Part shown: positions 27,962-42,676 of the stretch, piece by piece
Position numbering within the stretch: position 1 is the first letter of the stretch
Layout: each line of letters opens with the position of its first letter
Source of the DNA: Marinovum sp.
GTDB taxonomy: Bacteria; Pseudomonadota; Alphaproteobacteria; Rhodobacterales; Rhodobacteraceae
Length of the DNA stretch: 64,000 bases
Direction of reading: 5' to 3'
Assembly (NCBI RefSeq): GCF_048263515.1
Contig: NZ_JBLXEC010000018.1
Coordinates: 20,420 to 84,419 of the forward strand
The notes under the pieces: generated by a model
What the model saw: the letters and a program-made list of their open reading frames with translations, nothing else
What the model was told of the DNA's origin: nothing
The model's database searches: none
Made by a program: the position numbers and the translations under genes

Positions 27962-30478
27962 CTATTCCCGCGCACGCAGCACCCGCGCCGGGCGCGCCGC
28001 CAGTGGTCGCCAGGCAAAGCCCAGACCCGCCAGCAGAGTCGCCAGCACGCCGCCCAGCACGATCAGCAGGGCCGAGCGCCATTGCACCGCGAAATCCACC
28101 TCCATCACGTAGGTCATCACCGCCCAGCCGCCGATGACCCCCGCCGCCAGCGCTACCAGACCGGCGGCCGCTCCCAGCAATGCCGAGCGCAGGGCAAAGC
28201 TCTGCAGGATGCGCGCCCGCGCGGCGCCCAGCGTCTTGAGCACCGCCGCCTCGTAGGTGCGCGCCTGTTCGCCTGCCGCCGCCGCGCCGATCAGCACCAG
28301 AAAGCCGGTCAAGAGCGTCGCTGCCGCGCCCCAGGCGGTGGCCGAGGCGATGCCGCCCATGATCTCGGCCACCCGGTCGACCGCGTCGCGCACCCGGATC
28401 GCGGTGATGTTGGGATAGGCCGAGGCCAGATCGCGCAGGATCGCCGCCTCGGCCTCTTCCTCGGCATAGACGGTCGAGATGAAGCTGTGCGGCGCGCCTT
28501 CCAGCGCGGCGGCGTTCATCGACATGACGAAGCCGATGCCGGCGGTCGAGAAATCCACCTCGCGGAACGAGGCGATGGTGGCGGTGATGTCACGGGCGAG
28601 GATGTTGACGGTCAGCTCGTCACCGAGCTTGAGCCCGAGCTCGGCGCCTTCCTCGGCGGCAAAGCTGATCAGCGGCGGGCCGGTGTAATCCTCGGGCCAC
28701 CACTCGCCTTGGGTCAGCGTCGTGTCCTCGGGCAGGGCGGCGGAATAGGTGATGCCCCGGTCGCCGCGCACCACCCAATGATCGCCGGCGACGTCGCGCG
28801 CCGGCTGGCCGTTGATCTGGGTGAGGATGCCGCGCAGCATCGGCGCGCTCTGCACCTTCGACACCGCCGGGTCCTCGTCGAGCCTGGCGCGGAAGCCGGG
28901 CATCTGGTCTTTCTGGATGTCGACGAAGAAGAACGACGGCGCCACGTCGGGCAGGTCGGTCTGGATCGCGGCGCGCATGTTGCCCTCGATCTGGCCCACT
29001 GCCGCCAGCACCGACAGCCCGAGGCCCAGCGACAGCACGGTCGAGGCCGCGCCTTCCTGCGCGCCCGAGATCGCCGAGAGCGCCCAGCGGAGCGCCGGGC
29101 GGTGGCGCGCGGCGCGCTGGCTGCGGCGGGCGGCCCAGCGGATCGCCATGGCGGCCAAGGCCAGCACGGTCAGCGCCGCGAGGATGCCGCCGGCGGTCCA
29201 GAGCGTCAGCATCGACGAGCCGGAAAACAGTGCCGCTGCACCGATCAACCCGGCCAGCAGTGCCAGGGTCACCACCACATGCGGCCAGCGCGGCAGCAGC
29301 CGCGCGCCGCCCAGAGCGTCGCGGAAGAGCGTGGCGGGGCGGATTTCCTCGGTGCGGGCCAAGGGCCAGAGGGTAAAGATCAGCGCGGTGAAGATGCCAT
29401 AGAGCGCCGCTTCTAACAGCGGCCCGGGGTGCACGGCAAAGACCGCCGGCACCGGCAAGAGGCTCTGCAACAGCGGGCCCAGCGCCAGCGGCACCAGAGC
29501 GCCGAGGCTGAGGCCGATGGCGATGCCCAAGAGGCTGAGCGCGCCGATCTGCAGGAAATAGGTCAGGAAGATCACCTGCCGCGTGGCGCCCAGCGTGCGC
29601 AGGGTGGCGATCACCGAGGTCTTGGAGGCGAGGTAGGCCCGCACCGCCGCCGAGACGCCGACACCGCCCACCGCCAGCCCCGAGAGACCCACGAGGATCA
29701 GGAAGCTGCTCAGCCGGTCGACAAAGCGCGAGATGCCGGGCGCGCCATTGCGGGCATCGCGATATCGCCCGCCGACCTCGGTAAAGCGCTCGCGCGCCTC
29801 GGCCTTGAAGGCATCGAGATCGGTGCCGGTGGGCAGGGCCATGCGGTAATGCGTCTCGAAGAGCGTGCCGGGCTGCAGCAGGCCCGAGGTCGCAAGTGCT
29901 TCGGTGCGGACCAGCGTGCGCGGCCCGAGGGAAAAGCCGCCGCCGGCGTCGTCAGGCTCGACCGTGAGCAGGGCGCTCAGGGTGAAGGTGCCGGTGCCCA
30001 GCTGGAAGGTGTCGCCGGGCGTCAGGGCCAGCCGGTCGGCCAGCACCGGCGCCATCACCGCGCCCTGGCCGGCAAGTGCCTCGTCGAGCGGCATCTCCGG
30101 GTCGAGCGTGACCTGGCCCACCAGTGGATAGGCGTCGTCGACGGATTTGACCTGGGTCAGCGCGCGTTCGGTCTCGCCGTCGCGGGTAACCACGACCATC
30201 GAACGGAAATCGGTGATCTCCGAGACTGCCAGCGCCCGCTCGCTCATCCAGGCGCGCTCCTCGGGCTCGGCAAAGCGGTAGGTCAGGCGGACCTCGGCGT
30301 CGCCGCCCAGCAGCTCGGCGCCTTTCTCGGTCAGGCCGAGCTCGATCGAGGTGCGCACCATGCCGATGCCGGCAATCGCGGCGACACCCAGTGCCAGGCA
30401 CGCAAGGAAGATGCGAAAGCCGCGCAGGCCGCCACGCAGCTCGCGTCGGGCCAGTCGGGCCGCGGTGGCAAGGCTCAT
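27962..30478 (-). CDS. FtsX-like ABC transporter permease (YbbP-like)
   Basis: RRELRGG start, LLGGD, two IATLRTLGA/AVLKTLGA FtsX motifs, PSFFFVDIQ. Confidence 0.9.
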   Translation of the reverse strand: MSLATAARLARRELRGGLRGFRIFLACLALGVAAIAGIGMVRTSIELGLTEKGAELLGGDAEVRLTYRFAEPEERAWMSERALAVSEITDFRSMVVVTRDGETERALTQVKSVDDAYPLVGQVTLDPEMPLDEALAGQGAVMAPVLADRLALTPGDTFQLGTGTFTLSALLTVEPDDAGGGFSLGPRTLVRTEALATSGLLQPGTLFETHYRMALPTGTDLDAFKAEARERFTEVGGRYRDARNGAPGISRFVDRLSSFLILVGLSGLAVGGVGVSAAVRAYLASKTSVIATLRTLGATRQVIFLTYFLQIGALSLLGIAIGLSLGALVPLALGPLLQSLLPVPAVFAVHPGPLLEAALYGIFTALIFTLWPLARTEEIRPATLFRDALGGARLLPRWPHVVVTLALLAGLIGAAALFSGSSMLTLWTAGGILAALTVLALAAMAIRWAARRSQRAARHRPALRWALSAISGAQEGAASTVLSLGLGLSVLAAVGQIEGNMRAAIQTDLPDVAPSFFFVDIQKDQMPGFRARLDEDPAVSKVQSAPMLRGILTQINGQPARDVAGDHWVVRGDRGITYSAALPEDTTLTQGEWWPEDYTGPPLISFAAEEGAELGLKLGDELTVNILARDITATIASFREVDFSTAGIGFVMSMNAAALEGAPHSFISTVYAEEEAEAAILRDLASAYPNITAIRVRDAVDRVAEIMGGIASATAWGAAATLLTGFLVLIGAAAAGEQARTYEAAVLKTLGAARARILQSFALRSALLGAAAGLVALAAGVIGGWAVMTYVMEVDFAVQWRSALLIVLGGVLATLLAGLGFAWRPLAARPARVLRARE

Positions 30479-31167
30479 TCCGCGGCCTCGCGCAGGCTGG
30501 TGTCGAGACGGCCATCGCGCAGGCGCACCACGCGGTCGCAGCGGGCGGCCAGCGCCGGGGCATGGGTGACCAGCACCAGCGTCGCGCCGTGGCGGTCGCG
30601 CAGGTCGAAGAGCAGGTCCATGATTGCGCCGCCGTTGGTTTCGTCGAGATTGCCGGTGGGCTCGTCCGCCAGCAGGATATGCGGCCTGGGCGCCGAGGCG
30701 CGGGCCAGCGCCACGCGCTGCTGCTCGCCCCCCGACATCTGCGCCGGGTAGTGATCGGCGCGGCTGCCCAGCCCCACCGCCTCGAGCTCGGCGGCGGCGC
30801 GGTCAAAGGCATCGCGGTGGCCGGCCAGCTCCAGCGGTGTGGCGACATTTTCCAGCGCGGTCATGGTGGGGATCAGGTGAAAGCTCTGGAACACCACGCC
30901 CATGTGATCGCGGCGAAAGCGCGCCAGCGCATCCTCGTTCATCGTGCCGAAATCCTGTCCCAGCACCGTCACGCTGCCGCCTGTGGCCCGCTCGAGCCCG
31001 CCCATCAGCATCAGGAGCGAGGATTTGCCCGATCCCGACGGCCCGATCAGCCCGATGGATTCGCCTTTCGTCACGTCGAGCGAGATGCCATGCAGGATCT
31101 CGACCCTGCCGGCATTGCCATCGAGCGCAAGGTGCACATCTTTAAGCAAGAGAACGGGATCAGACAT
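30475..31167 (-). CDS. ABC transporter ATP-binding protein (YbbA-like)
   Basis: GPSGSGKS, MSGGEQQRV, LLADEPTGNLD. Confidence 0.93.
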   Translation of the reverse strand: MSDPVLLLKDVHLALDGNAGRVEILHGISLDVTKGESIGLIGPSGSGKSSLLMLMGGLERATGGSVTVLGQDFGTMNEDALARFRRDHMGVVFQSFHLIPTMTALENVATPLELAGHRDAFDRAAAELEAVGLGSRADHYPAQMSGGEQQRVALARASAPRPHILLADEPTGNLDETNGGAIMDLLFDLRDRHGATLVLVTHAPALAARCDRVVRLRDGRLDTSLREAAE

Positions 31168-31861
31168 GCAAAGGGCCTTTCGGGCAATGTATCAGCTTTT
31201 GACATATGGGGGTTGTGCCCGCCTGAGCAAGGCGGTCGCGGCGGTTTTGACGCTGGCTGCGCCGGCGGCGGCGGACGAGTTGGAGATCCTGGCGCTGGGC
31301 GACAGCCTGATCCAGGGCTACGGGCTGATGGCCGAAGAGGGCTTCGTGCCGCAGATGCAGGAGTGGCTGACAGAGCAGGGCCACGCGGTGACCCTGATCA
31401 ACGGCGGCGTCTCTGGCGACACCACGGCGGGTGGCCTCGCGCGGGTGGCCTGGAGCCTCTCGCCCGAGGTCGACGCGATGATCGTGGCTTTGGGCGGCAA
31501 CGACGTGCTGCGCGGCATCGATCCCGGCGTGGCGCGGGCCAACCTCGACGGCATCCTCAAGGTCGCGGCAGAGCAGGACCTGCCGGTGCTGCTGGTGCCG
31601 ATGCGCGCGCCGGGGAATTACGGCCCGGACTACAAGGCGGCGTTTGACGGGATGTATGCGGAACTCGCGGCAGAGCATGGTGCGCTTGAGTCGCCGGCCT
31701 TCTTCGACATCCTGCTGCCCGAGGGCGGCGATCCGGGGCAAGTGTCTGACCTGATGCAGGGCGACGGCATCCACCCGAATGCGGAAGGCGTGGCGCAGAT
31801 CGTCGAGGGGATCGGGCCGCATGTGGAGCGGTTGATCGCGGCGGTTGAGGGCGCATCGTAA
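31166..31861 (+). CDS. Arylesterase / GDSL-SGNH hydrolase (TesA-like)
   Basis: LGDSL, GVSGDTT, LGGND, DGIHPN; start uncertain (31166 or later). Confidence 0.88.
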   Translation: MQRAFRAMYQLLTYGGCARLSKAVAAVLTLAAPAAADELEILALGDSLIQGYGLMAEEGFVPQMQEWLTEQGHAVTLINGGVSGDTTAGGLARVAWSLSPEVDAMIVALGGNDVLRGIDPGVARANLDGILKVAAEQDLPVLLVPMRAPGNYGPDYKAAFDGMYAELAAEHGALESPAFFDILLPEGGDPGQVSDLMQGDGIHPNAEGVAQIVEGIGPHVERLIAAVEGAS

Positions 31862-31879
31862 ACGCCACCCCGCAAATAC

Positions 31880-31908
31880 AAAAAGCCCCACCGAATGGCG
31901 GGGCCTTT
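31880..31908 (-). terminator. Intrinsic terminator of the cold-shock gene
   Basis: Minus strand GGCCCCGCC-ATTC-GGTGGGGCT-TTTT. Confidence 0.75.
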
Positions 31909-31931
31909 CAATCACTTCGAGGCAAGAAGCC

Positions 31932-32138
31932 TTACGCCAGCGCGATGTTCTCGGCGGCTTCGCGGCCATCACGGCCCGGCTTGATGTCGAAGGTGACTTT
32001 CTGGTTGTCGGCGAGGCCGGTCAGGCCGGAGCGCTCAACAGCAGAGATGTGCACGAACACGTCTTTGCTGCCGCCGTCGGGTGCGATGAAACCAAAGCCT
32101 TTGGTGGTGTTGAACCATTTCACAGTGCCAGTGGCCAT
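31932..32138 (-). CDS. Cold-shock protein
   Basis: MATGTVKWFNTTKGFGFI, DVFVHISA. Confidence 0.97.
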   Translation of the reverse strand: MATGTVKWFNTTKGFGFIAPDGGSKDVFVHISAVERSGLTGLADNQKVTFDIKPGRDGREAAENIALA

Positions 32139-32452
32139 GTGTTTACTCCTAGTAGTACTACTGCCCGCGGGATTGCGGCAGGTCGGCTTAGTCAGTGCAG
32201 ATCGAAGGACTGAGCCGTAGAAGGAGCAGCGGTCGATAGATAACTTCGCACGCAAGATATGCGGGTAAGCCGACGCCATTTCAAGGGGAATTTGCGGGGC
32301 TTTCGGCAAGGCGTTGCCGGCGCAAAGGCGGGACACGTTATCCTTGCGTTACGCTAGCGCTATCGCACCCGCTTTGAAGCGCAGACGACCTGTGCGCCGA
32401 TCCACAGGGCAAATGAGAGAGACCCACGCGAGAATCGGGGCGCGCAGGGGTG

Positions 32453-33601
32453 TCACGCCTTGGAGCCACCGAAGGCCCGGATCAGGTAGCTCGGCAGCCG
32501 CCGCACCAGCGCGCGCATCAGGTCGGGATATTCGATCTCGCCGCCCAGAAGCCGCATGTAGTCATACCGCAGGTGGCCGGATTTGCGCACCGCGCGGACG
32601 AAGCCTTGCTTGAACGGCCCCCAGTAGAGCAGCAGCCGCACCCGGTTGGCATGGCGCATCGCCGTCAGGATCGGGCGGAGCCGCGCGCGGTAGAGCCGCA
32701 GCGCCGCGTCGGGTTCATGCCGCGCCAGCGCGTCGCGCGCGGCCAGCGCCGCCATCTCGCCGGATTTCATCGCATAGGCAATGCCCTCGCCGGTGACCGG
32801 ATCGACCAGCCAGGCGGCATCGCCGGCCAGCAGCACGTTGTCGCGCCCGGGGCGGCGGCGGGCCTGGCCGAAGGGCAGGTACTGGCCCTTGATCCGGGTC
32901 CCCGGCGGCACCCCGAGATCGGCCATGTAGGCGCGCATGATCGTCTTGAGATCGGGGTTGCGGCTGTGCACGCCGCCGACACCCACAGTATGGGTGCCGG
33001 ATTTGGGGAAGGACCAGCCGTAACCCCAGTTCGCCGCCCCCATGTCGATGCGCAGCGGCGCATCGGCCGGCAGGGGAGGGCCCTCGGCCTCGAGCGCGAA
33101 GCCGATGCGGGCGGGATCGAAAGGCCGGCCAAAGAGCGCCCGGGCGGTGGCGCTGTTGACGCCATCGGCACCGATGACGATGGGCGCCTGAAGCGTGAGG
33201 CCGGAGGCCAGGGTCACGCGGCCGGCCTCGGGGGTCAGCTCGGTGATGCGCTGGCCGGTGAAATCCTCGGCCCCGGCGTCGAGCGCCAGCGCGCAGAGAT
33301 GGGCGTCGAGCGACAGCCTCATGGTCAGGTAGACCGGCGGAATATCCTCGATCACGCCCAGCTTTTCGCCGAAACCATAAAGGGTTACCGCCGACTTGCT
33401 GTCGAACTCGGCGGGCAGCTCGGTGGCAAAGATCTCGCGGTAGTAGCGCGCCGCCCGGCCGGTGAACCCGGCGCCGCAAAGCTTGTCTCTGGGAAAGCGG
33501 GCCTTGTCGACCAAAGCGGTCCGAAGGCCGGCTTTCGCGGCGGTGCGCGCAGCAGCCGCCCCGGCAGGGCCCGCGCCGATGACAATCAGATCAAACAACA
33601 T
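32453..33601 (-). CDS. Geranylgeranyl reductase-family FAD monooxygenase/reductase
   Basis: IGAGPAG, FPRDKLC, GADG, GDAA..VDPVTGEGIAYA. Confidence 0.88.
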   Translation of the reverse strand: MLFDLIVIGAGPAGAAAARTAAKAGLRTALVDKARFPRDKLCGAGFTGRAARYYREIFATELPAEFDSKSAVTLYGFGEKLGVIEDIPPVYLTMRLSLDAHLCALALDAGAEDFTGQRITELTPEAGRVTLASGLTLQAPIVIGADGVNSATARALFGRPFDPARIGFALEAEGPPLPADAPLRIDMGAANWGYGWSFPKSGTHTVGVGGVHSRNPDLKTIMRAYMADLGVPPGTRIKGQYLPFGQARRRPGRDNVLLAGDAAWLVDPVTGEGIAYAMKSGEMAALAARDALARHEPDAALRLYRARLRPILTAMRHANRVRLLLYWGPFKQGFVRAVRKSGHLRYDYMRLLGGEIEYPDLMRALVRRLPSYLIRAFGGSKA

Positions 33602-33710
33602 GCAGGCTCTTTCCCCGCTCGCCCCGGCGCGGTCAAGAGGCAAAAGGAAACCGGCGCGCGGGGGGCTCCAAGCCCCCATGCACGCCGGCAAAATTGACCT
33701 TGCGGAAGGT

Positions 33711-34268
33711 TCAGATCACGGTGACCGTGGTACCGATCGGCACCCGCGGATAGAGGTCCATCACATGGGCGTTGGCCATCCGGTAGCAGCCGTTCGATGC
33801 CGCCTGGCCGATCGAGGCGAGGTTGTCGGTGCCGTGGATTGCCGCATAGGTGTTGACGCCGTTCTGGAACAGATACATCGCCCGCGCGCCCAGCGGATTG
33901 CCCGGACCGCCCGGCTGGACGTAATCGTTGCCCTTGAAGCGGCCATAGGTCTGCGGCTCGCGCTCGATCATCGCGTCGGTGGGCCGCCAGGTGGGCCATT
34001 CCTTCTTGGCCTGGATCACCCCGGTGCCGGAAAACTCGAGCCCGGTGCGACCGACGCTGATGCCGTAGCGCAGGGCGCGGCCCGGTTCTTCGATGAAGTA
34101 GAGGAAACGCGATTTCTGCAGCACGATGATCTGGCCCGGGGCCAGGTCGGCGCGCACGCGGACGTATTGCGGGGCGAATTTCGGATCGAGTTGAAACTGT
34201 GCCCGGGCCAGCGACGGCAAGGCCAGGGCAGCGGCGACAGAGCCTGCAAACGTACGGCGCGAAATCAT
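33711..34268 (-). CDS. L,D-transpeptidase (YkuD), Tat-like signal
   Basis: SRRTF N-terminus; NPLGARA, IHGT...SNGCYRM. Confidence 0.92.
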   Translation of the reverse strand: MISRRTFAGSVAAALALPSLARAQFQLDPKFAPQYVRVRADLAPGQIIVLQKSRFLYFIEEPGRALRYGISVGRTGLEFSGTGVIQAKKEWPTWRPTDAMIEREPQTYGRFKGNDYVQPGGPGNPLGARAMYLFQNGVNTYAAIHGTDNLASIGQAASNGCYRMANAHVMDLYPRVPIGTTVTVI

Positions 34269-34385
34269 GGGGGTCCCTCCAGCAATGAGCCGGGGAATCA
34301 TATGGCAGGAGGTCCGTGAGCGGGAGTCAGGTTTCCGTTACCCCGGAAAGTTGTGGGCCCTGTGCAACGGAGTGCAGCGGCAGGC

Positions 34386-34607
34386 TCAGGCGGCGATCGG
34401 GCCGCGGGCCGGGGCGCTGTCCTCGGAGGGGCTGCTGCGCAGCGGCGCGGTGATCAGCGACAGCGCGATGCAGAGCATCGGCAGGGCCAGAGCGAGACCG
34501 AAATAGAGGCTCAGGGCGGCAAGACCGCTCATCCCGAAGACCAGCCAGCCCAGCAAACCGCCGAAGGCACCGAAGGTGCTGCCGAAGATGAATGCGATGC
34601 TGGCCAT
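34386..34607 (-). CDS. Small hypothetical membrane protein
   Basis: 73 aa, two Gly-rich TM helices, RBS GGAGA. Confidence 0.6.
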   Translation of the reverse strand: MASIAFIFGSTFGAFGGLLGWLVFGMSGLAALSLYFGLALALPMLCIALSLITAPLRSSPSEDSAPARGPIAA

Positions 34608-34768
34608 GTCGGTCTCCTGTCCCTCTGGTCTGAAATCCAGTAAGCGCGGCAAATGGGGCAGCAATGCGGCGCATTCGGTGCATTTTCCGGCGCAAGGTGC
34701 CGGGGTCTTGCCGCAAAGGCAAGCCGTCCCCAGATATTCGCAAAGCACGATATGAAGGAATCCGCGTC

Positions 34769-35191
34769 ATGAGCGCAAAGAAACTGACATGCCTCGACTG
34801 CGGGCAGGTGAACAAGGTGCCCGAGGCGCGGCTCGACGCCGGCCCGAAATGCGGCACCTGCGGCGCGCGGCTTATGCCGGGCAAGCCGGTGGAGATCGAC
34901 CTCGCCACGCTGAAAAAGGCCGCGCGCAACGACGAGGTGCCGCTGGTCGTCGACTTCTGGGCGCCCTGGTGCGGCCCCTGCCGGATGATGGCGCCGGAGT
35001 TCGACCGGGCCGCGGGCCAGGTCGGCACCAGGGCGCGGCTGGTCAAGCTCAACACCCAGGACGAGGCGCAGGCCGCCGGCAGCTACAACATCCGCGGCAT
35101 CCCGACCATGGTCCGCTTTGACCGGGGGCGCGAGGCGGGGCGGCAGTCGGGCGCGCTGACCGCCGACCAGATCTTGGGCTGGATCGGCTGA
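34769..35191 (+). CDS. trxC: Thioredoxin 2 with N-terminal zinc finger
   Basis: CLDC...CGTC zinc finger plus WCGPC. Confidence 0.92.
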   Translation: MSAKKLTCLDCGQVNKVPEARLDAGPKCGTCGARLMPGKPVEIDLATLKKAARNDEVPLVVDFWAPWCGPCRMMAPEFDRAAGQVGTRARLVKLNTQDEAQAAGSYNIRGIPTMVRFDRGREAGRQSGALTADQILGWIG

Positions 35192-35263
35192 AATCACGGG
35201 TCCACCCCTTGCAGGCCGGCGCAGGCTCTGACAGCTTCCCGCGCGTAAGGCAGGAGGTTGGTG

Positions 35264-35746
35264 ATGAGCGCGTTGATCTGGATCGGGTTGGTCATGGGGC
35301 TGGGGGGCACCCTGGCGATGGACATCTGGTCCGAGGTGCTGGCGCGGGGCTTTGGCCAGCCGCGCCCGGCCTGGGGGCGGATCGGGCGCTGGGCGGCGCA
35401 GCTGCCCGGGGGCCGGGTCTTTCACGACGACATCGGCGCGGTACACCCGGTGCAGGGCGAGGTCGCCCTGGGCTGGCTGGTGCATTACAGCGTCGGGCTG
35501 GCCTATGGCGTGATCTTCGTGCTGCTGTCGGGGCCGGACTGGCTGGCAGCGCCGAGCTTTCTGCCGTTGTGGATTTTCGCGATGGTCACCATCGGCGCGG
35601 GCTGGTTCCTGTTGCAGCCCGGGATGGGTCTGGGCTGGGCGGCGTCGCGCACGCCAAACCCCTGGAAGGTGCGCGGCATGGGGCTGGTGGCCCATACGGT
35701 CTTTGCCATCGGCATGTACGCGGTGGCGGTGCTGGGCGCGCCCTGA
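35264..35746 (+). CDS. DUF2938-family membrane protein
   Basis: GTLAMD, IGRW, GWLVHYSVG, LQPGMGLG..ASRTP; RBS GGAGG. Confidence 0.8.
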   Translation: MSALIWIGLVMGLGGTLAMDIWSEVLARGFGQPRPAWGRIGRWAAQLPGGRVFHDDIGAVHPVQGEVALGWLVHYSVGLAYGVIFVLLSGPDWLAAPSFLPLWIFAMVTIGAGWFLLQPGMGLGWAASRTPNPWKVRGMGLVAHTVFAIGMYAVAVLGAP

Positions 35747-35749
35747 GGC

Positions 35750-36289
35750 TCAGCGCTCTGACAAGGGCCTGAAGGGCCTGGCGCTGGTGTCCTTTTCCTG
35801 CGCCTGCATCCAGCCGTTTTCCCAGGACTGGTGATCGACGGTGTTCTCGGAATACGGATTGGCTTGGAAGGAGACCCCCTCCTGCCGGGCGATGTAGCCT
35901 TCGTCATAGGCGGCCATCCGCGGGTCCATCCCGGCGGAATGATGCGCCGTCTTCTGCAGGTGCTCGGCGAATTCGGGGTATTTCACCAGCACCGTCTGGT
36001 CGAGCCCGTCCGGATACTCCTCGAGTGCCTGCCGCCCGCGATCGGTCAGCGCGAGGGCGCCGTCCTCGGCAGGCTCCAGAATGCGGGCGATGCGCAGGTG
36101 ATCGAGCTGTCGCAGCAGCCGGACCCGCCGCTCATCCTCGGGCAGGCCCGGCGTCTTGCCGGCGGTCTGGAATAGGGCGTCGAGCCGGGCGGAACAGCTG
36201 TCGATGGTCACCGGTCCCCTTGCGGCGGCATGCAGGATGAGCGCCGTCAGGCTGGCGGTGCTGAGCAGGGGGTAGTCATTGTCGAACAT
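35750..36289 (-). CDS. Mrr-N-like winged-helix protein with C-terminal RMF-like motif
   Basis: LTDRGRQAL..YPDGLD..L.KYPEF followed by AYDEGYIA..G..NPY..SWENGW. Confidence 0.65.
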   Translation of the reverse strand: MFDNDYPLLSTASLTALILHAAARGPVTIDSCSARLDALFQTAGKTPGLPEDERRVRLLRQLDHLRIARILEPAEDGALALTDRGRQALEEYPDGLDQTVLVKYPEFAEHLQKTAHHSAGMDPRMAAYDEGYIARQEGVSFQANPYSENTVDHQSWENGWMQAQEKDTSARPFRPLSER

Positions 36290-36407
36290 GCGCGGCGGTC
36301 CTCTGATCTGACGCTTGAGGTCAGCCTAGGCGCAGGACGACGACCGGTAAAGAGGCAGGGTGAGGCCGGCGGGGCCGGGCCTCACCTCTGGTCGCGGGGC
36401 AGGGGCG

Positions 36408-36563
36408 TCAGACCCGGCCCATCAGCACGAGGATGATCAGCACGATCAGCACCACGCCGAGGATGCCCGAGGGCGCATAGCCCCAGTTGCGCGAATGCCC
36501 CCAGCGCGGCAGGGCGCCGATCAGGGCAAGGATCAAAAGGATGATCAGAATGGTATAGAGCAT
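36408..36563 (-). CDS. DUF3309-family small membrane protein
   Basis: GALPRWGHSRNWGYAPSG. Confidence 0.9.
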   Translation of the reverse strand: MLYTILIILLILALIGALPRWGHSRNWGYAPSGILGVVLIVLIILVLMGRV

Positions 36564-36748
36564 GGCGGTGTCCCTCTTCGGTTCGGGGTGATGGCGGTCT
36601 CGGAGCCTTTGCCGCAGCGACAAGGTCCGCGGCAGGTTGGCAACGCGCGAGCCGGGCTTCGGTTCCCTTGCGGAAGCGCGGTCTCTGGGCAGGGCGCGCG
36701 GGGTGGTGTAGCCTCGGGCCGAACAGCAGTTTTCAGAGGCAGAGCAAC

Positions 36749-37132
36749 ATGACAGAGACCCAATCGGCGCCGGACGGAGAGCTGACCCTGCGCACGCTGG
36801 CAATGCCGGCCGACACCAACGTCAACGGCGACATCTTCGGCGGCTGGGTGCTGAGCCAGATGGACATGGCCGCCGGCATCGTCGCCGGCGAAAAGGCGCA
36901 GGGCCGGGTGGCCACCATCGCCGTCGACGCGATGAAGTTCATCCGCCCGGTCAAGGTGGGCGACGTGCTCTGCGTCTACTGCCACATCGCGCGGGTGGGC
37001 CGGACCTCGATGGCGATCGAGGTCGAAGCCTGGGTCCGCCGCGAGCGCATGGGCATGCGCGAGAAGGTGACCGAGGCGATCTTTACCTTCGTGGCGATCG
37101 ACGGCGACGGGAGACCGCGCGAGGTCCCGTAG
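36749..37132 (+). CDS. Acyl-CoA thioesterase (YciA-like hotdog fold)
   Basis: MPADTNVNGDIFGGWVLSQMD. Confidence 0.92.
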   Translation: MTETQSAPDGELTLRTLAMPADTNVNGDIFGGWVLSQMDMAAGIVAGEKAQGRVATIAVDAMKFIRPVKVGDVLCVYCHIARVGRTSMAIEVEAWVRRERMGMREKVTEAIFTFVAIDGDGRPREVP

Positions 37133-37185
37133 GGTGGGTTTCCAACCCACCTTTTCGGGCGCGGTGGGTTGAAAACCCACCCCGC
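37129..37185. repeat. Inverted REP pair (REPIN-like) upstream of RAYT
   Basis: GTAGGGTGGGTTTCCAACCCACC (37129-37151) and reverse GGTGGGTTGAAAACCCACCCCGC (37163-37185). Confidence 0.9.
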
Positions 37186-37225
37186 GGTTACCTCGTGTTA
37201 ATCGCTTTTCGGGCAGTTTCGGCGC

Positions 37226-37837
37226 ATGCCGAACTACATTCGCCCGAAGGCCAGAGGGGCCACCATCTTCTTCACCGTCGCCCTCGCACAGCGCGGCGCG
37301 ACGCTTCTGACCGACGAGATCGAGCTGCTGCGCGATGCCGTCAGGGTCACCCGCGCGCGCCGGCCCTTTGTGATCGAGGCCTGCGTGGTGCTGCCGGACC
37401 ACCTGCACATGCTCTGGACCCTGCCATCTGACGATAGCAATTATTCCGACCGCTGGGGCGCGATCAAGGCGCGGTTCTCCAAGAGGGTGCGGCTGAAGCG
37501 GGGGGATGCGGTGGGTTGCAAACCCACCCTACGAGAGGCGGCGTCGTCCGGTTCTGCCCGCTCTGACGTAGAGCGACTGAGGGCGCGCCGCTCGGCCAGT
37601 AAGGTGAAGAAGCAGGACGCCGGCATCTGGCAGCGGCGGTTCTGGGAGCATCACATCCGCGACCGCACCGACTTGGAAAACCACATCAGGTGTTGCTGGG
37701 GCAATCCGGTAAAACACGGGCTGGTCGAGAGGCCGGTGGATTGGCGGTATTCCTCGATCCATCGCGATGTGCGGCTGGGGCGGGTGGAGCCGGAGTGGCG
37801 CTGCGGCGATCTGCGCGACATGTTCGGAGAGCCGTAG
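37226..37837 (+). mobile_element. REP-associated tyrosine transposase (RAYT/TnpA-REP); catalytic Tyr apparently replaced by Cys
   Basis: FFTV, HUH motif PDHLH, WQRRFWEHHIRD, NPVKHG, DWRYSS; flanked by REPs. Confidence 0.92.
37510..37532 (-). repeat. REP embedded in-frame within the RAYT CDS
   Basis: Reverse complement GTAG-GGTGGGTT-TGC-AACCCACC; encodes VGCKPTL. Confidence 0.9.
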
Positions 37838-38005
37838 GGTGGGTCTGTGACCCACCGCAGCGGGGCATTAGGCACGGGGCAAGCCCGCGAGATAACCCCG
37901 TAGGGTGGGTCTGTGACCCACCATGCCGCGGAGCTTCCGCCAAGGCGGTGGGTTGAAAACCCACCCTACGGGCCGCATCGGGTGCGCCGAGACGGCGCAC
38001 CCTGT
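37834..38005. repeat. REP cluster downstream of RAYT
   Basis: GTAGGGTGGGTCTGTGACCCACC at 37834-37856 and 37900-37922; reverse REP 37947-37969; variant hairpin GGGTGCGCCG-AGA-CGGCGCACCC 37980-38002. Confidence 0.9.
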
Positions 38006-38008
38006 ATC

Positions 38009-39664
<1,656 letters not shown>

Positions 39665-39776
39665 TGCTCGCCCCTTGGTTTGCCTGGAGGGCTAGATAAC
39701 GCTGCGCGGGACGAGGTGCAATGTGTCGCGGAGGGATGGGGTTGGAATGCCGCTCGGTGAGGCAGTGGGTTGTAGC

Positions 39777-39848
39777 GGTGGGTTACAAACCCACCCTACG
39801 GTGAAGCGCACGACGGACAGGACGGGTAGGGTGGGTTTGCAACCCACC
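39777..39848. repeat. Divergent REP pair between ettA and MOSC gene
   Basis: Reverse REP 39777-39799 and forward GTAGGGTGGGTTTGCAACCCACC 39826-39848. Confidence 0.9.
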
Positions 39849-39880
39849 TGCACGGAACGCGGCAAGGGAAGGAAAGACCT

Positions 39881-40351
39881 ATGGACCGACTGGCAGACCT
39901 GATCGCGCGCTATGCGCAGCCCGGGCGGTTTGACTGGATCGGCATCAGGCCGGTCCGGCGCGGCGAGATGCAGGCGCTGGACCGGGTGGAGATCACCGAG
40001 GCGGGGCTCAAGGGCGACCGGGGCCGCGCCGGCAAGCGGGCGGTGACGCTGGTGCAGGCCGAGCACATGGCGGTGATCGGCGGCTTTCTCGGCCAAGGCA
40101 CGGTGCCGCCAGAGGCGCTGCGCCGCAACCTGGTGATTTCGGGGATCAACATCGCGGGGCTGCGCCGCCGTCAGGTGGCACTGGGCGGCGCGCTGCTCGA
40201 GATCACCGGGCCCTGTGCGCCCTGCAGCCGGATGGAAGAGCACTTCGGTCCCGGCGGCTATGCGGCGGTGCGCGGTCATGGCGGCATGACGGCGCGGGTG
40301 TTGCAGCCCGGCGCTGTCGCGCTGGGCGATGTTCTGCGGCCAATCGATTGA
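39881..40351 (+). CDS. MOSC domain protein
   Basis: [32 protein letters not shown]. Confidence 0.88.
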
Positions 40352-40403
40352 CAATCCCGCCGGGTTTCCGCGAGATGGGCGCGTTTCCAAGGGGGCTGAC
40401 GCC

Positions 40404-41030
40404 GTGACATCCATCCCGACGCTGCGGCGCGGCCTGACCATCGGTTTGCTGGGCGGCTCCTTCGATCCGCCGCACGAGGGCCATGTGCACATCACCCGCG
40501 AGGCGCTCAAGCGGTTCGGGCTCGATCGGGTGTGGTGGCTGGTCAGCCCCGGCAACCCGCTCAAGGCCCATGGTCCGGCGCCGCTGGACGAACGAATGGC
40601 GGCGGCGCGGCGGATCATGCAGCACCCGCGGGTCGAGATCAGCGATTACGAGGCGCGGGCGGGAACCAGATACACCGCCGAGACGTTGGAAGCTCTGAGA
40701 CGGGATTACCAGGGCGCGAAATTCGTATGGTTGATGGGCGCGGACAACCTCGTGCAATTGCCGCAGTGGCAGGATTGGCAGCGCATCGTCGAGACGGTGC
40801 CAATCGGCGTGCTTGCCCGTCCCGGAGACCGCATCCGCGCCCGCAACTCCAAGGCCGCAAGGGTCTATGCCGCCGCGCGCATCCGCGGCCGCGAGTCGCT
40901 TCGGCTGGCGCAGGCCGAGGCGCCGGCCTGGTGTTTCGTCAACGTGCCGATGAAGGGCGAAAGCTCGAGCGCGATCCGCGCCACCGGGGCCTGGCGCCAT
41001 GATGGGGCCGGGGACACCTCTGAGGATTGA
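40404..41030 (+). CDS. nadD: Nicotinate-nucleotide adenylyltransferase
   Basis: [23 protein letters not shown]; GTG start chosen. Confidence 0.93.
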
Positions 41031-41173
41031 AACGGCCCATTGCACGCAGGGGTTGTGCGCTGTTCGCTCCTTCACGACGATGTGTCACCACGAGGTGAAT
41101 TGCGCGTTAAATTCGCCGCGACCGCAGGTATCGCGCGCTTGTCTGACACCAAGGGCTGAGGTTTAATCGATCC

Positions 41174-42676
41174 ATGACGCAAGCATTTTCAAGACGCATG
41201 TTTCTCGGCGCGGCGCTCGGATTTGCCGCGGTTCACGCCAATGCGGCCTCGCCCAGCCGGTCTCTGCGTCCGGTGGCGCGGCCGGGCAGCACCAAGCCCA
41301 TTCCCAAGGTCTTTCCCGCCGCCGAAACGATGGTCAAGGAGGCCAATCTTTCCGGACAGGTGACCTATGCGGTGATGGACGTCTCGACCGGCCAGTTGCA
41401 CGAGGCCGGCCAGCCCGAGCTCGGCCTGCCGCCGGCGAGCGTCGCCAAGGCGGTGACCGCGCTTTATGCGCTGGATGCGCTGGGAGAGGATCACCGGTTC
41501 ACCACGCGCGTGCTGGGCACGGCGCCCATCGTCGAGGGGGTTCTGGACGGCGACCTGATCCTCGCCGGTGGCGGTGATCCGACGCTGGGCACCGACGAGC
41601 TTGCCGCTCTGGTCAAGGCGCTGAAGGAGGCCGGACTGAAAGAGGTGACCGGCGACTTCCTGGTTTGGGGCGGGGCGCTGCCCTTTACCGACCGGATCGA
41701 CGTTGAGCAGCCCGACCATGTGGCCTACAGCCCGGCGGTTTCGGGGCTGAACCTGAATTTCAACCGCGTGCATTTCCAGTGGGCCCGCGAGGGCAGCGAG
41801 TACGAGGTGAGCATGGACGCCCGCAGCGGTCGCTACACCCCAGAGGTCTCGGTGGCGCGGATGCAGGTCGAGGACCGCAACCTGCCGGTCTATACCTACG
41901 AGGACGTAGCTGGCACCGACAGCTGGACCGTGGCGCGCGGCGCGCTGGGCAAGGGCGGGTCGCGCTGGCTGCCGGTGCGCAAGCCCGAGGCCTATGCCGG
42001 CGAGGTGTTCCAGATTCTGGCCGGGGCCGAGGGGATCTCGCTGAAGACGCCGCGTATTGTCGAGACCGCGCCGGAGGGCGAGACCCTGGCCGAGGTGCAA
42101 TCCGGCAAGCTGACCGACATCCTGCGCGACATGCTGAAATATTCCACAAATCTCACCGCCGAGGTGGTGGGCCTCTCGGCGACGAGGGCGCGGGGCATCG
42201 CGGCCGACGGGTTGCCGGCCTCGGGGCAGGCGATGTCCGACTGGGCGCGCGAGCGCTATGGCCTGACGTCCGACATGCGCTTTGCCGATCACTCTGGGCT
42301 GGGCGGCGACAGCCGGATCACCGCGACAGACATGGTGGCGATGCTGCGCGAGGCGCGCGGCGCGGGGCCGCTGCGTGAGCTTATGAAGCCGATCCCGATG
42401 CGCGACGAGAAGCGGCAGATCATCGACGATCATCCGGTCGACGTTGACGCCAAGACCGGAACCCTGAACTTTGTCTCGGCGCTGGCGGGCTATGCCACCG
42501 CCATCGACGGCAGCGAACTGGCCTTTGCGATCTTCACCGCCGATGTGCCCCGGCGCGACGCGCTGAGCATGGCCGAGCGCGAGCGCCCCGAGGGCGGTCA
42601 GGTCTGGCTCACCCGGTCGCGCAAGCTGCAGCAGCGGCTGCTGCAGCGCTGGGGCCAGGCCTTCGCCAACAGCTGA
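41174..42676 (+). CDS. dacB: D-Ala-D-Ala carboxypeptidase/endopeptidase (peptidase S13), Tat-like signal
   Basis: SRRMFL; SxxK (ASVAK), GGGDP, SxN (STN), KTG. Confidence 0.9.
   Translation: MTQAFSRRMFLGAALGFAAVHANAASPSRSLRPVARPGSTKPIPKVFPAAETMVKEANLSGQVTYAVMDVSTGQLHEAGQPELGLPPASVAKAVTALYALDALGEDHRFTTRVLGTAPIVEGVLDGDLILAGGGDPTLGTDELAALVKALKEAGLKEVTGDFLVWGGALPFTDRIDVEQPDHVAYSPAVSGLNLNFNRVHFQWAREGSEYEVSMDARSGRYTPEVSVARMQVEDRNLPVYTYEDVAGTDSWTVARGALGKGGSRWLPVRKPEAYAGEVFQILAGAEGISLKTPRIVETAPEGETLAEVQSGKLTDILRDMLKYSTNLTAEVVGLSATRARGIAADGLPASGQAMSDWARERYGLTSDMRFADHSGLGGDSRITATDMVAMLREARGAGPLRELMKPIPMRDEKRQIIDDHPVDVDAKTGTLNFVSALAGYATAIDGSELAFAIFTADVPRRDALSMAERERPEGGQVWLTRSRKLQQRLLQRWGQAFANS

Follow-up and report, generated by a model that had tools for sequence, protein, structure and literature searches.

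What is the task of a protein that ends like a ribosome modulation factor (RMF), begins like the sensor domain of an Mrr-type restriction enzyme, and carries no nuclease? The question is raised by a gene of Marinovum sp. (Rhodobacteraceae; RefSeq assembly GCF_048263515.1) that lies within a 64,000-nucleotide stretch of contig NZ_JBLXEC010000018.1 (positions 20,420 to 84,419 of the forward strand), referred to here as the window. RMF has been regarded as an invention of the Gammaproteobacteria that serves a single purpose, and an earlier note on this DNA, made from the sequence alone, had proposed that the fusion may link nucleic-acid sensing to ribosome shutdown or to defense. Our analysis indicates that the RMF fold has been reused in Alphaproteobacteria, where, with its charge reversed, it forms the C-terminal domain of an Mrr sensor that lacks a nuclease. 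We put at about 0.5 the probability that the product is a nucleic-acid-binding adaptor or regulator derived from Mrr, in which the acidic RMF-fold module would act as the output domain. We think it probable that the protein is a small regulator of a new kind and not a ribosome silencer.

The C-terminal module

The string that the earlier note had read as an RMF pattern is present at residues 126 to 163 and is more than a chance pattern match. The Pfam RMF profile (PF04957) matches residues 124 to 165 with 34.8 bits against a gathering threshold of 27.9 (E value of 1.7e-8), covers model positions 9 to 50 of 53, and matches all 35 of 35 close homologues. A profile of the module built from 46 family members, when compared with the sequences in the PDB, returned RMF chains only, with E values from 4.7e-7 to 1.6e-5 (2JRM at 4.7e-7 and both 6H4N and 4V8G at approximately 1e-5). 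Structure comparison gave the same answer: an AlphaFold2 (AF2) model of residues 117 to 171 alone (predicted local distance difference test score [pLDDT], 88.8) consists of two helices with a 14-residue loop between them, and the top four Foldseek matches to it were all RMF chains, with template modeling (TM) scores of 0.69 to 0.77 and root mean square deviations (rmsd) of 1.4 to 2.6 Å over 48 to 51 residues. The VIA aligner, run over 48,161 representative chains, ranked the RMF chain 4v8g_AV first (Z score, 7.6; rmsd, 2.5 Å; 52 residues aligned). The fold is seen when the module is modeled alone; with the full-length model, Foldseek returned only generic winged helices, at E values above 0.01. 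The earlier note had named the lack of a match to an RMF profile or structure among the findings that would count against it; both matches are present.

What has been kept is the interior of the fold. The core residues of the module are G131, A134, G138, N144-P145-Y, W156, G159-W160, and A163, whereas those peculiar to the family (D122, D129/E130, the D149 position, D152-H153, and E157-N158) are acidic or polar. The G-Y-x-A, G, P-Y, and W-x-x-G-W-x-x-A motif that the module has in common with RMF is the small hydrophobic core, and the functional surface around it differs. The module has a net charge of -6 and an isoelectric point of approximately 4.2, the mean charge across 82 family members is -6.3 (range, -1 to -15), and the whole Marinovum protein stands at -9. 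The structure of the E. coli 100S particle shows the first helix of RMF entering a cleft in 16S rRNA, with conserved Arg3, Lys5, Arg8, Arg11, and Arg15 bonded to the phosphate backbone (10.1101/382572). HMMER alignments place Arg15 opposite a conserved Glu or Asp that precedes G131, Arg8 opposite Pro123, and Lys5 and Arg11 opposite Ala or Gly; the module retains not one of these five rRNA-gripping basic residues, and the interdomain linker stands where RMF has its basic N-terminal extension. The three NCBIfam models of this group all scored below their cutoffs: the RMF equivalog NF011162 gave 26.9 bits against 40, the Rmf/CrpP family NF041886 gave 18.2 against 28, and the CrpP-related NF041856 gave 15.2 against 35.

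The genome also encodes a single long HPF of 190 amino acids (S30AE followed by S30AE_C, the C-terminal dimerization domain). Long HPF is the arrangement by which bacteria form 100S ribosomes without RMF. On these grounds, namely the reversed charge, the lost rRNA contacts, the score below the equivalog cutoff, and the long HPF, a fusion that links nucleic-acid sensing to ribosome shutdown finds no support at the level of residues. The earlier note correctly described canonical RMF as gammaproteobacterial and as a protein that stands alone. The two helices, the long loop, and the G-Y-x-A...G...P-Y...W-x-x-G-W-x-x-A motif are common to RMF (E. coli rmf; PF04957; 4V8G, 6H4N, and 2JRM) and to the module described here, but canonical RMF has about 55 residues, is very basic, and works with short HPF, whereas the module forms the C-terminal domain of a 179-residue alphaproteobacterial protein, has a net charge of -6, and occurs in a genome with long HPF. 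An alternative that we regard as rather unlikely is that the protein is nevertheless a ribosome-associated factor, in which the module would dock on the small subunit, either in the RMF pocket or at another site (basic ribosomal proteins are one possibility), and the winged helix would sense or bridge RNA or DNA; Alphaproteobacteria would thereby have an accessory factor for hibernation or for the control of translation. The homology to RMF and the fold are real and speak for it; the loss of all five rRNA-contacting residues and the strong acidity of the module are incompatible with insertion into the rRNA cleft, and the score falls short of that of an RMF equivalog. The family is found in 11 of 401 genomes and therefore cannot be a core component of hibernation.

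Other proteins also carry RMF-like motifs. The Rmf/CrpP proteins (NF041886 and NF041856; CrpP of Pseudomonas integrative and conjugative elements) resemble the module in carrying an RMF-like motif in a role that is nonribosomal and outside the gammaproteobacterial core, but they stand alone, have about 65 residues, and reside on mobile elements, whereas the family described here is chromosomal and fused to a winged helix. In four metagenomic proteins of 281 to 624 amino acids (P0134, P0140, P0166, and P0171), an RMF-like motif (G-x-x-A...G...N-P-[YFH]...W-x-x-G-W) is repeated three to five times in tandem. Several of the four have a strongly acidic composition, and the motif thus serves as a repeat unit, too, in proteins whose function is unknown. 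Weak matches were also obtained to three uncharacterized phage families that carry an RMF-like motif. Since such motifs occur in acidic tandem arrays and, weakly, in phage families, a Pfam RMF match does not by itself imply hibernation.

Public names for members of the family (for instance, P0010, P0012, and P0016 from NCBI and P0216, P0236, and P0238 from JGI) are inconsistent and include "ribosome modulation factor" (many NCBI and UniRef entries), "restriction system protein" (some JGI entries), "Mrr restriction endonuclease-like protein," and hypothetical protein. The first two are probably misleading, the former as an overannotation, and the "ribosome modulation factor" label could distort counts of hibernation factors in marine Roseobacter-group genomes.

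A winged helix of Mrr type and its family

The resemblance of the N terminus to the Mrr N-terminal domain, which the earlier note had pointed out, is true but visible at the profile level only. Pfam Mrr_N (PF14338; gathering threshold, 29.5 bits) did not match the Marinovum protein at an E value of 10 or below; weak matches were obtained in 16 of 35 homologues (best E value, 0.001), and precomputed PF14338 marks exist for some of the distant members of the family. Positions 7 to 125 of the family profile match Mrr proteins of 300 to 350 amino acids in related genomes, with E values of 1e-10 to 5e-23 per genome, and the two matched proteins that were checked are textbook Mrr enzymes with both Mrr_N and Mrr_cat. 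An hhalign comparison with one of these gave a probability of 93% and an E value of 3.3e-7, and the structure neighbors in the ESM Atlas are Mrr clusters (TM score, 0.52 to 0.59). In the AF2 model (pLDDT, 83 to 97), the domain is composed of helices at residues 11 to 24, 29 to 43, and 51 to 67, a hairpin at residues 71 to 81, and a conserved wing, T82-x-R84-G85-R86. Prediction of a homodimer from two copies with the family alignment returned no answer (score, 0.00) and speaks neither for nor against a dimer.

The residues of the wing are common to Mrr (ITDRGKEAL and ITARGREVL), and the helix beyond it reads YPEFAEHL here and FDEFRAF or FEEFQEF in Mrr. Because both the wing and the helix that follows are homologous, the Mrr part extends to the start of the RMF module, and the nuclease has in effect been swapped for an RMF fold. 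The absence of a nuclease domain, as previously noted, is borne out: Mrr_cat finds no match, and the protein ends 10 residues past the module. Thus, in relation to Mrr (PF14338 plus PF04471), the winged helix, the T-x-R-G-R/K wing, and the x-E-F linker helix are alike, but the PD-(D/E)xK domain, 12 residues before the third helix, and any restriction context are lacking. The closest structural neighbors of the domain belong to another class of proteins; VIA gave Z scores of approximately 10 to the winged helices of PadR, MarR, and Hel308. The PadR and MarR regulators (Z score, 9 to 10; rmsd, 2 to 3 Å; 72 to 84 residues) also have the layout of a winged helix with a short helical C-terminal domain, but no sequence relationship to them was detected, and their C-terminal domain is a dimerization element where the present family has an RMF fold.

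A HMMER search over 1.84 billion cluster representatives gave 161 matches, about 100 of which have the two-domain length of 160 to 205 amino acids, at identities down to approximately 25%; in the family alignments, invariant positions are found in both domains. The closest named relative is from Marinovum algicola FF3 (88% identity), and further members occur in Leisingera, Ruegeria, Roseovarius, Defluviimonas, and Cribrihabitans among the Rhodobacterales and in Telmatospirillum and Aestuariispira among the Rhodospirillales. The full-length form was found in 2 of 201 genera of the family to which the window belongs and in 11 of 401 sampled Alphaproteobacteria genomes, which represent at least six GTDB families; none was found outside the Alphaproteobacteria in the 401-genome sample of the phylum, and no member was found in one genome of the same genus. 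The family is conserved but rare and, among the genomes sampled, confined to the Alphaproteobacteria. Its two domains travel together, as an obligatory pairing, since among longer proteins the acidic module occurs almost only behind an Mrr-type winged helix: the profile of the module gave 54 matches to proteins of more than 98 amino acids, all of them 102 to 243 residues long and nearly all of family length with Pfam marks for RMF, Mrr_N, or both.

This record bears directly on the idea that the gene is a nonfunctional remnant or an annotation artifact, a decaying Mrr gene with a tail that resembles RMF by chance. Taken alone, the Marinovum protein indeed has no Pfam Mrr_N match, and several metagenomic relatives look frameshifted past the N-terminal domain. 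The approximately 100 clusters (formed at 50% identity) of full two-domain length, at identities down to approximately 25%, the invariant core residues and confident models of both domains, and the conserved promoter and Shine-Dalgarno sequence make the idea barely credible; conservation effectively refutes it. The relatives in question (P0117, P0120, P0122, P0130, and P0157) have a normal N-terminal domain followed, in place of the RMF module, by an Arg/Pro-rich tail that looks out of frame; they probably reflect sequencing errors that shifted the frame, or else are pseudogenes.

What the protein may do

We suggest that the protein originated from an Mrr-kind type IV restriction enzyme that retained its winged-helix sensor and linker helix but exchanged its PD-(D/E)xK nuclease for the 48-residue RMF-fold module. 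The winged helix would still bind nucleic acid through the conserved T-x-R-G-R wing; the most likely ligand would be DNA, possibly recognized in a modification-dependent manner as in Mrr. The acidic module would provide the output: it would either offer a surface on which a basic partner protein could dock or act as an intramolecular lid, in competition with nucleic acid for the wing. The product would then be a small, cytoplasmic, noncatalytic regulator or adaptor, perhaps with a place in stress or stationary-phase physiology, and would not, in the manner of canonical RMF, plug the anti-Shine-Dalgarno pocket of the 30S subunit. That the winged helix might read CcrM-type methylation is pure speculation. 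A study of winged-helix fusion endonucleases as sensors of N6-methyladenine (PMC11037411) does not treat Mrr_N.

Several observations weigh against this proposal. Relative to Mrr, the 12-residue stretch SGRQTVVANRIHW leading into the third helix is missing in the hhalign alignment, and the N-terminal domain is not basic, its mean net charge being -2.7 (range, -11 to +7). The sole candidate for an operator or target is an 8-bp palindrome in the gene's own promoter. The genes found near family members, which include ettA, csp, a fusion of HPF to a cold-shock domain (HPF-CSD), dksA-like, era/rnc, truA, and rtcB, lean toward RNA and translation rather than transcription.

The second role proposed in the earlier note, a link to defense, left no trace in the places where we looked. 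PADLOC-DB 2.0 gave no match at an E value of 1 or below with the whole protein or with either domain, the genome contains no Mrr_N or Mrr-type gene above threshold, and the neighborhoods of the family are housekeeping and chromosomal, with no prophage, plasmid, or defense island. The protein could be imagined as a defense or counterdefense element, either a decoy, in the form of an Mrr without nuclease that sits on modified-DNA sites, or an acidic modulator of restriction or of another immune system that resembles a DNA mimic. Its N-terminal domain descends from a type IV restriction enzyme, it is acidic overall, its distribution is patchy and accessory-like even among close relatives, it lies in a variable stretch adjoining a cluster of repetitive extragenic palindromic (REP) sequences and a REP-associated tyrosine transposase (RAYT), and the weak phage matches point the same way. 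The lack of a PADLOC match, the housekeeping neighbors, and the vertical-looking synteny within the Rhodobacterales stand against such an element, and the decoy version was ranked low because the genome has no Mrr. Altogether, we hold a role in defense to be improbable.

A nucleic-acid-binding regulator of Mrr descent would be a clean case of the sensor domain of a restriction enzyme domesticated with a noncatalytic effector. Its parts are known; the combination, the charge-reversed RMF fold, and the restriction to Alphaproteobacteria are without a description in the literature that we searched, where queries for RMF with CrpP, with Alphaproteobacteria or Roseobacter, and for "RMF-like" did not return this architecture. 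The one mention of "RMF-like" concerns a fold similarity of RecT C-terminal extensions (PMC13490951).

Transcription unit and neighborhood

The features of the gene and its product are collected in Table 1. The start codon is shared with 34 homologues at 40 to 97% identity, all of which begin at the same MFDND motif. The TTTACC and TAGGCT boxes, with their 17-nucleotide spacing, recur upstream of four orthologues (70 to 88% protein identity), and -10-type boxes (TAGGCT, TAGACT, or TACACT) are found in six distant family loci, past a clear terminator of the preceding gene. From this conservation we infer that the pair is the gene's own sigma70-like promoter; a scanner for consensus promoters and terminators made no call in positions 35500 to 36700, which include both the proposed promoter and the hairpin; the latter escaped the scanner for want of a U-tract. 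A perfect 8-bp palindrome, GCCTAGGC, at 36322 to 36331 on the minus strand overlaps the proposed -10 box. Three of the four orthologous promoters keep it intact, and the remaining one has a single mismatch; it may be an operator or simply reflect the context of the -10 box. Inspection by eye only of the 120 nucleotides upstream revealed no evident EcfG-type general-stress promoter (GGAAC...CGTT), and no RNA family was found by Rfam over positions 30000 to 42000. Upstream, on the same strand, lies a DUF3309 gene (51 amino acids; stop codon at 36410 to 36408), which the hairpin divides from the promoter, and downstream a convergent DUF2938 gene (35258 to 35746) comes within 3 nucleotides of the TGA codon. 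Given the convergent neighbor and the hairpin after DUF3309, the winged-helix-RMF gene is a single, monocistronic transcription unit.

Table 1. Coordinates, within the window, of the winged-helix-RMF gene, the parts of its product, and flanking signals
Feature	Position	Strand	Basis
Coding sequence, 179 aa plus TGA stop	35750..36289	minus	Open reading frame list and translation; ATG at 36289, TGA at 35752-35750
Diverged Mrr_N-type winged helix plus linker helix YPEFAEHL, residues 1-115	35945..36289	minus	AF2 and profiles
Flexible interdomain linker, residues 116-121, length variable in the family	35927..35944	minus	pLDDT <50; alignments
Acidic RMF-fold helix-loop-helix module, residues 122-169	35783..35926	minus	Pfam, PDB profile, Foldseek, VIA
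C-terminal tail, residues 170-179, poorly conserved, closest relatives only	35753..35782	minus	Alignment; pLDDT <50
Shine-Dalgarno-like AGAGGA, 9 nt 5' of ATG	36299..36304	minus	Read from sequence
Putative promoter: -35 TTTACC (36351-36346), 17-nt spacer, -10 TAGGCT (36328-36323)	36323..36351	minus	Conservation
GC-rich hairpin 3' of the DUF3309 gene stop, without U-tract	36359..36386	minus	Read from sequence

About 100 family loci were collected for a survey of neighborhoods, with upstream neighbors called in 52, and no gene consistently accompanies the family as an operon partner across them. The ettA gene lies upstream on the same strand, at a distance of 0.13 to 3.3 kb, in 10 loci of Rhodobacterales type; its identity is secure (TIGR03719, 944 bits against a cutoff of 807), and in the window it occupies positions 38009 to 39664, with the REP/RAYT cluster, a thioesterase gene, and the DUF3309 gene between it and the winged-helix-RMF gene. 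The linkage looks like one inherited synteny block of the Rhodobacterales, because a genome of the same genus retains the order of the block with other genes at this spot: that genome (L116:1865-3105) keeps ettA, DUF2938, thioredoxin 2, a YkuD L,D-transpeptidase, and csp in order and has genes for an unrelated 123-residue membrane protein and a 178-residue secreted protein in place of those for RAYT, thioesterase, DUF3309, and the winged-helix-RMF protein. Family members of six other alphaproteobacterial lineages lie elsewhere, and neither ettA nor a csp or HPF gene was found near them.

Among the immediate upstream neighbors, cold-shock-domain genes are the most frequent (5 of the 52 called), and tblastn places one upstream in six loci, which fall into two clades only approximately 40% identical to each other. 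Genes of the csp type make up a small share of a genome, and the adjacency is probably more than chance. However, the loci cannot be counted as independent, and the family gene is set apart from csp by terminators and a promoter of its own. In a third clade, represented by a metagenomic contig (L026), an HPF(S30AE)-CSD fusion gene is situated 82 bp upstream with no evident terminator. This fusion (P0248, L026:4347-4919, plus strand) has 190 amino acids and combines an S30AE domain (60.6 bits) with a C-terminal cold-shock domain (27.5 bits). A dksA-like gene lies 38 bp upstream in one locus (L024), era and rnc flank the family gene in Ruegeria sediminis, and truA or rtcB is found near others.

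The recurrence of upstream translation and stress genes, with those for EttA, cold-shock-domain proteins, HPF-CSD, a DksA-like protein, and Era/Rnc among them, is the second argument for a factor that acts at the ribosome. The inherited character of the ettA block, the six lineages without such neighbors, and the terminators between csp and the gene detract from it, and we take the neighborhood to hint weakly at stress or translation physiology, without reading it as evidence of ribosome binding. A more specific version, which we consider distinctly unlikely, would make the family a new, Alphaproteobacteria-specific, ribosome- or translation-linked class in which a winged helix taken from Mrr, as a sensor of modification or of nucleic acid, is coupled to an RMF fold that docks, in a non-RMF mode, on the small subunit or on a partner of the HPF, CspA, or EttA type. 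If a ribosomal or translational role did hold, the protein would be a new type of translation-linked factor that couples the state of nucleic acid to translational shutdown in bacteria thought to have no RMF.

The stretch downstream of ettA (window positions 35750 to 38019) has the character of a variable-cargo spot. The REP/RAYT cluster lies between ettA and the thioesterase gene and was therefore inserted into the interval that separates ettA from the winged-helix-RMF gene. Its REP hairpins (CCGTAGGGTGGGTTTCCAACCCACC and variants; positions 37127 to 37971) flank the RAYT transposase gene at 37226 to 37837, and one of them lies inside that gene.

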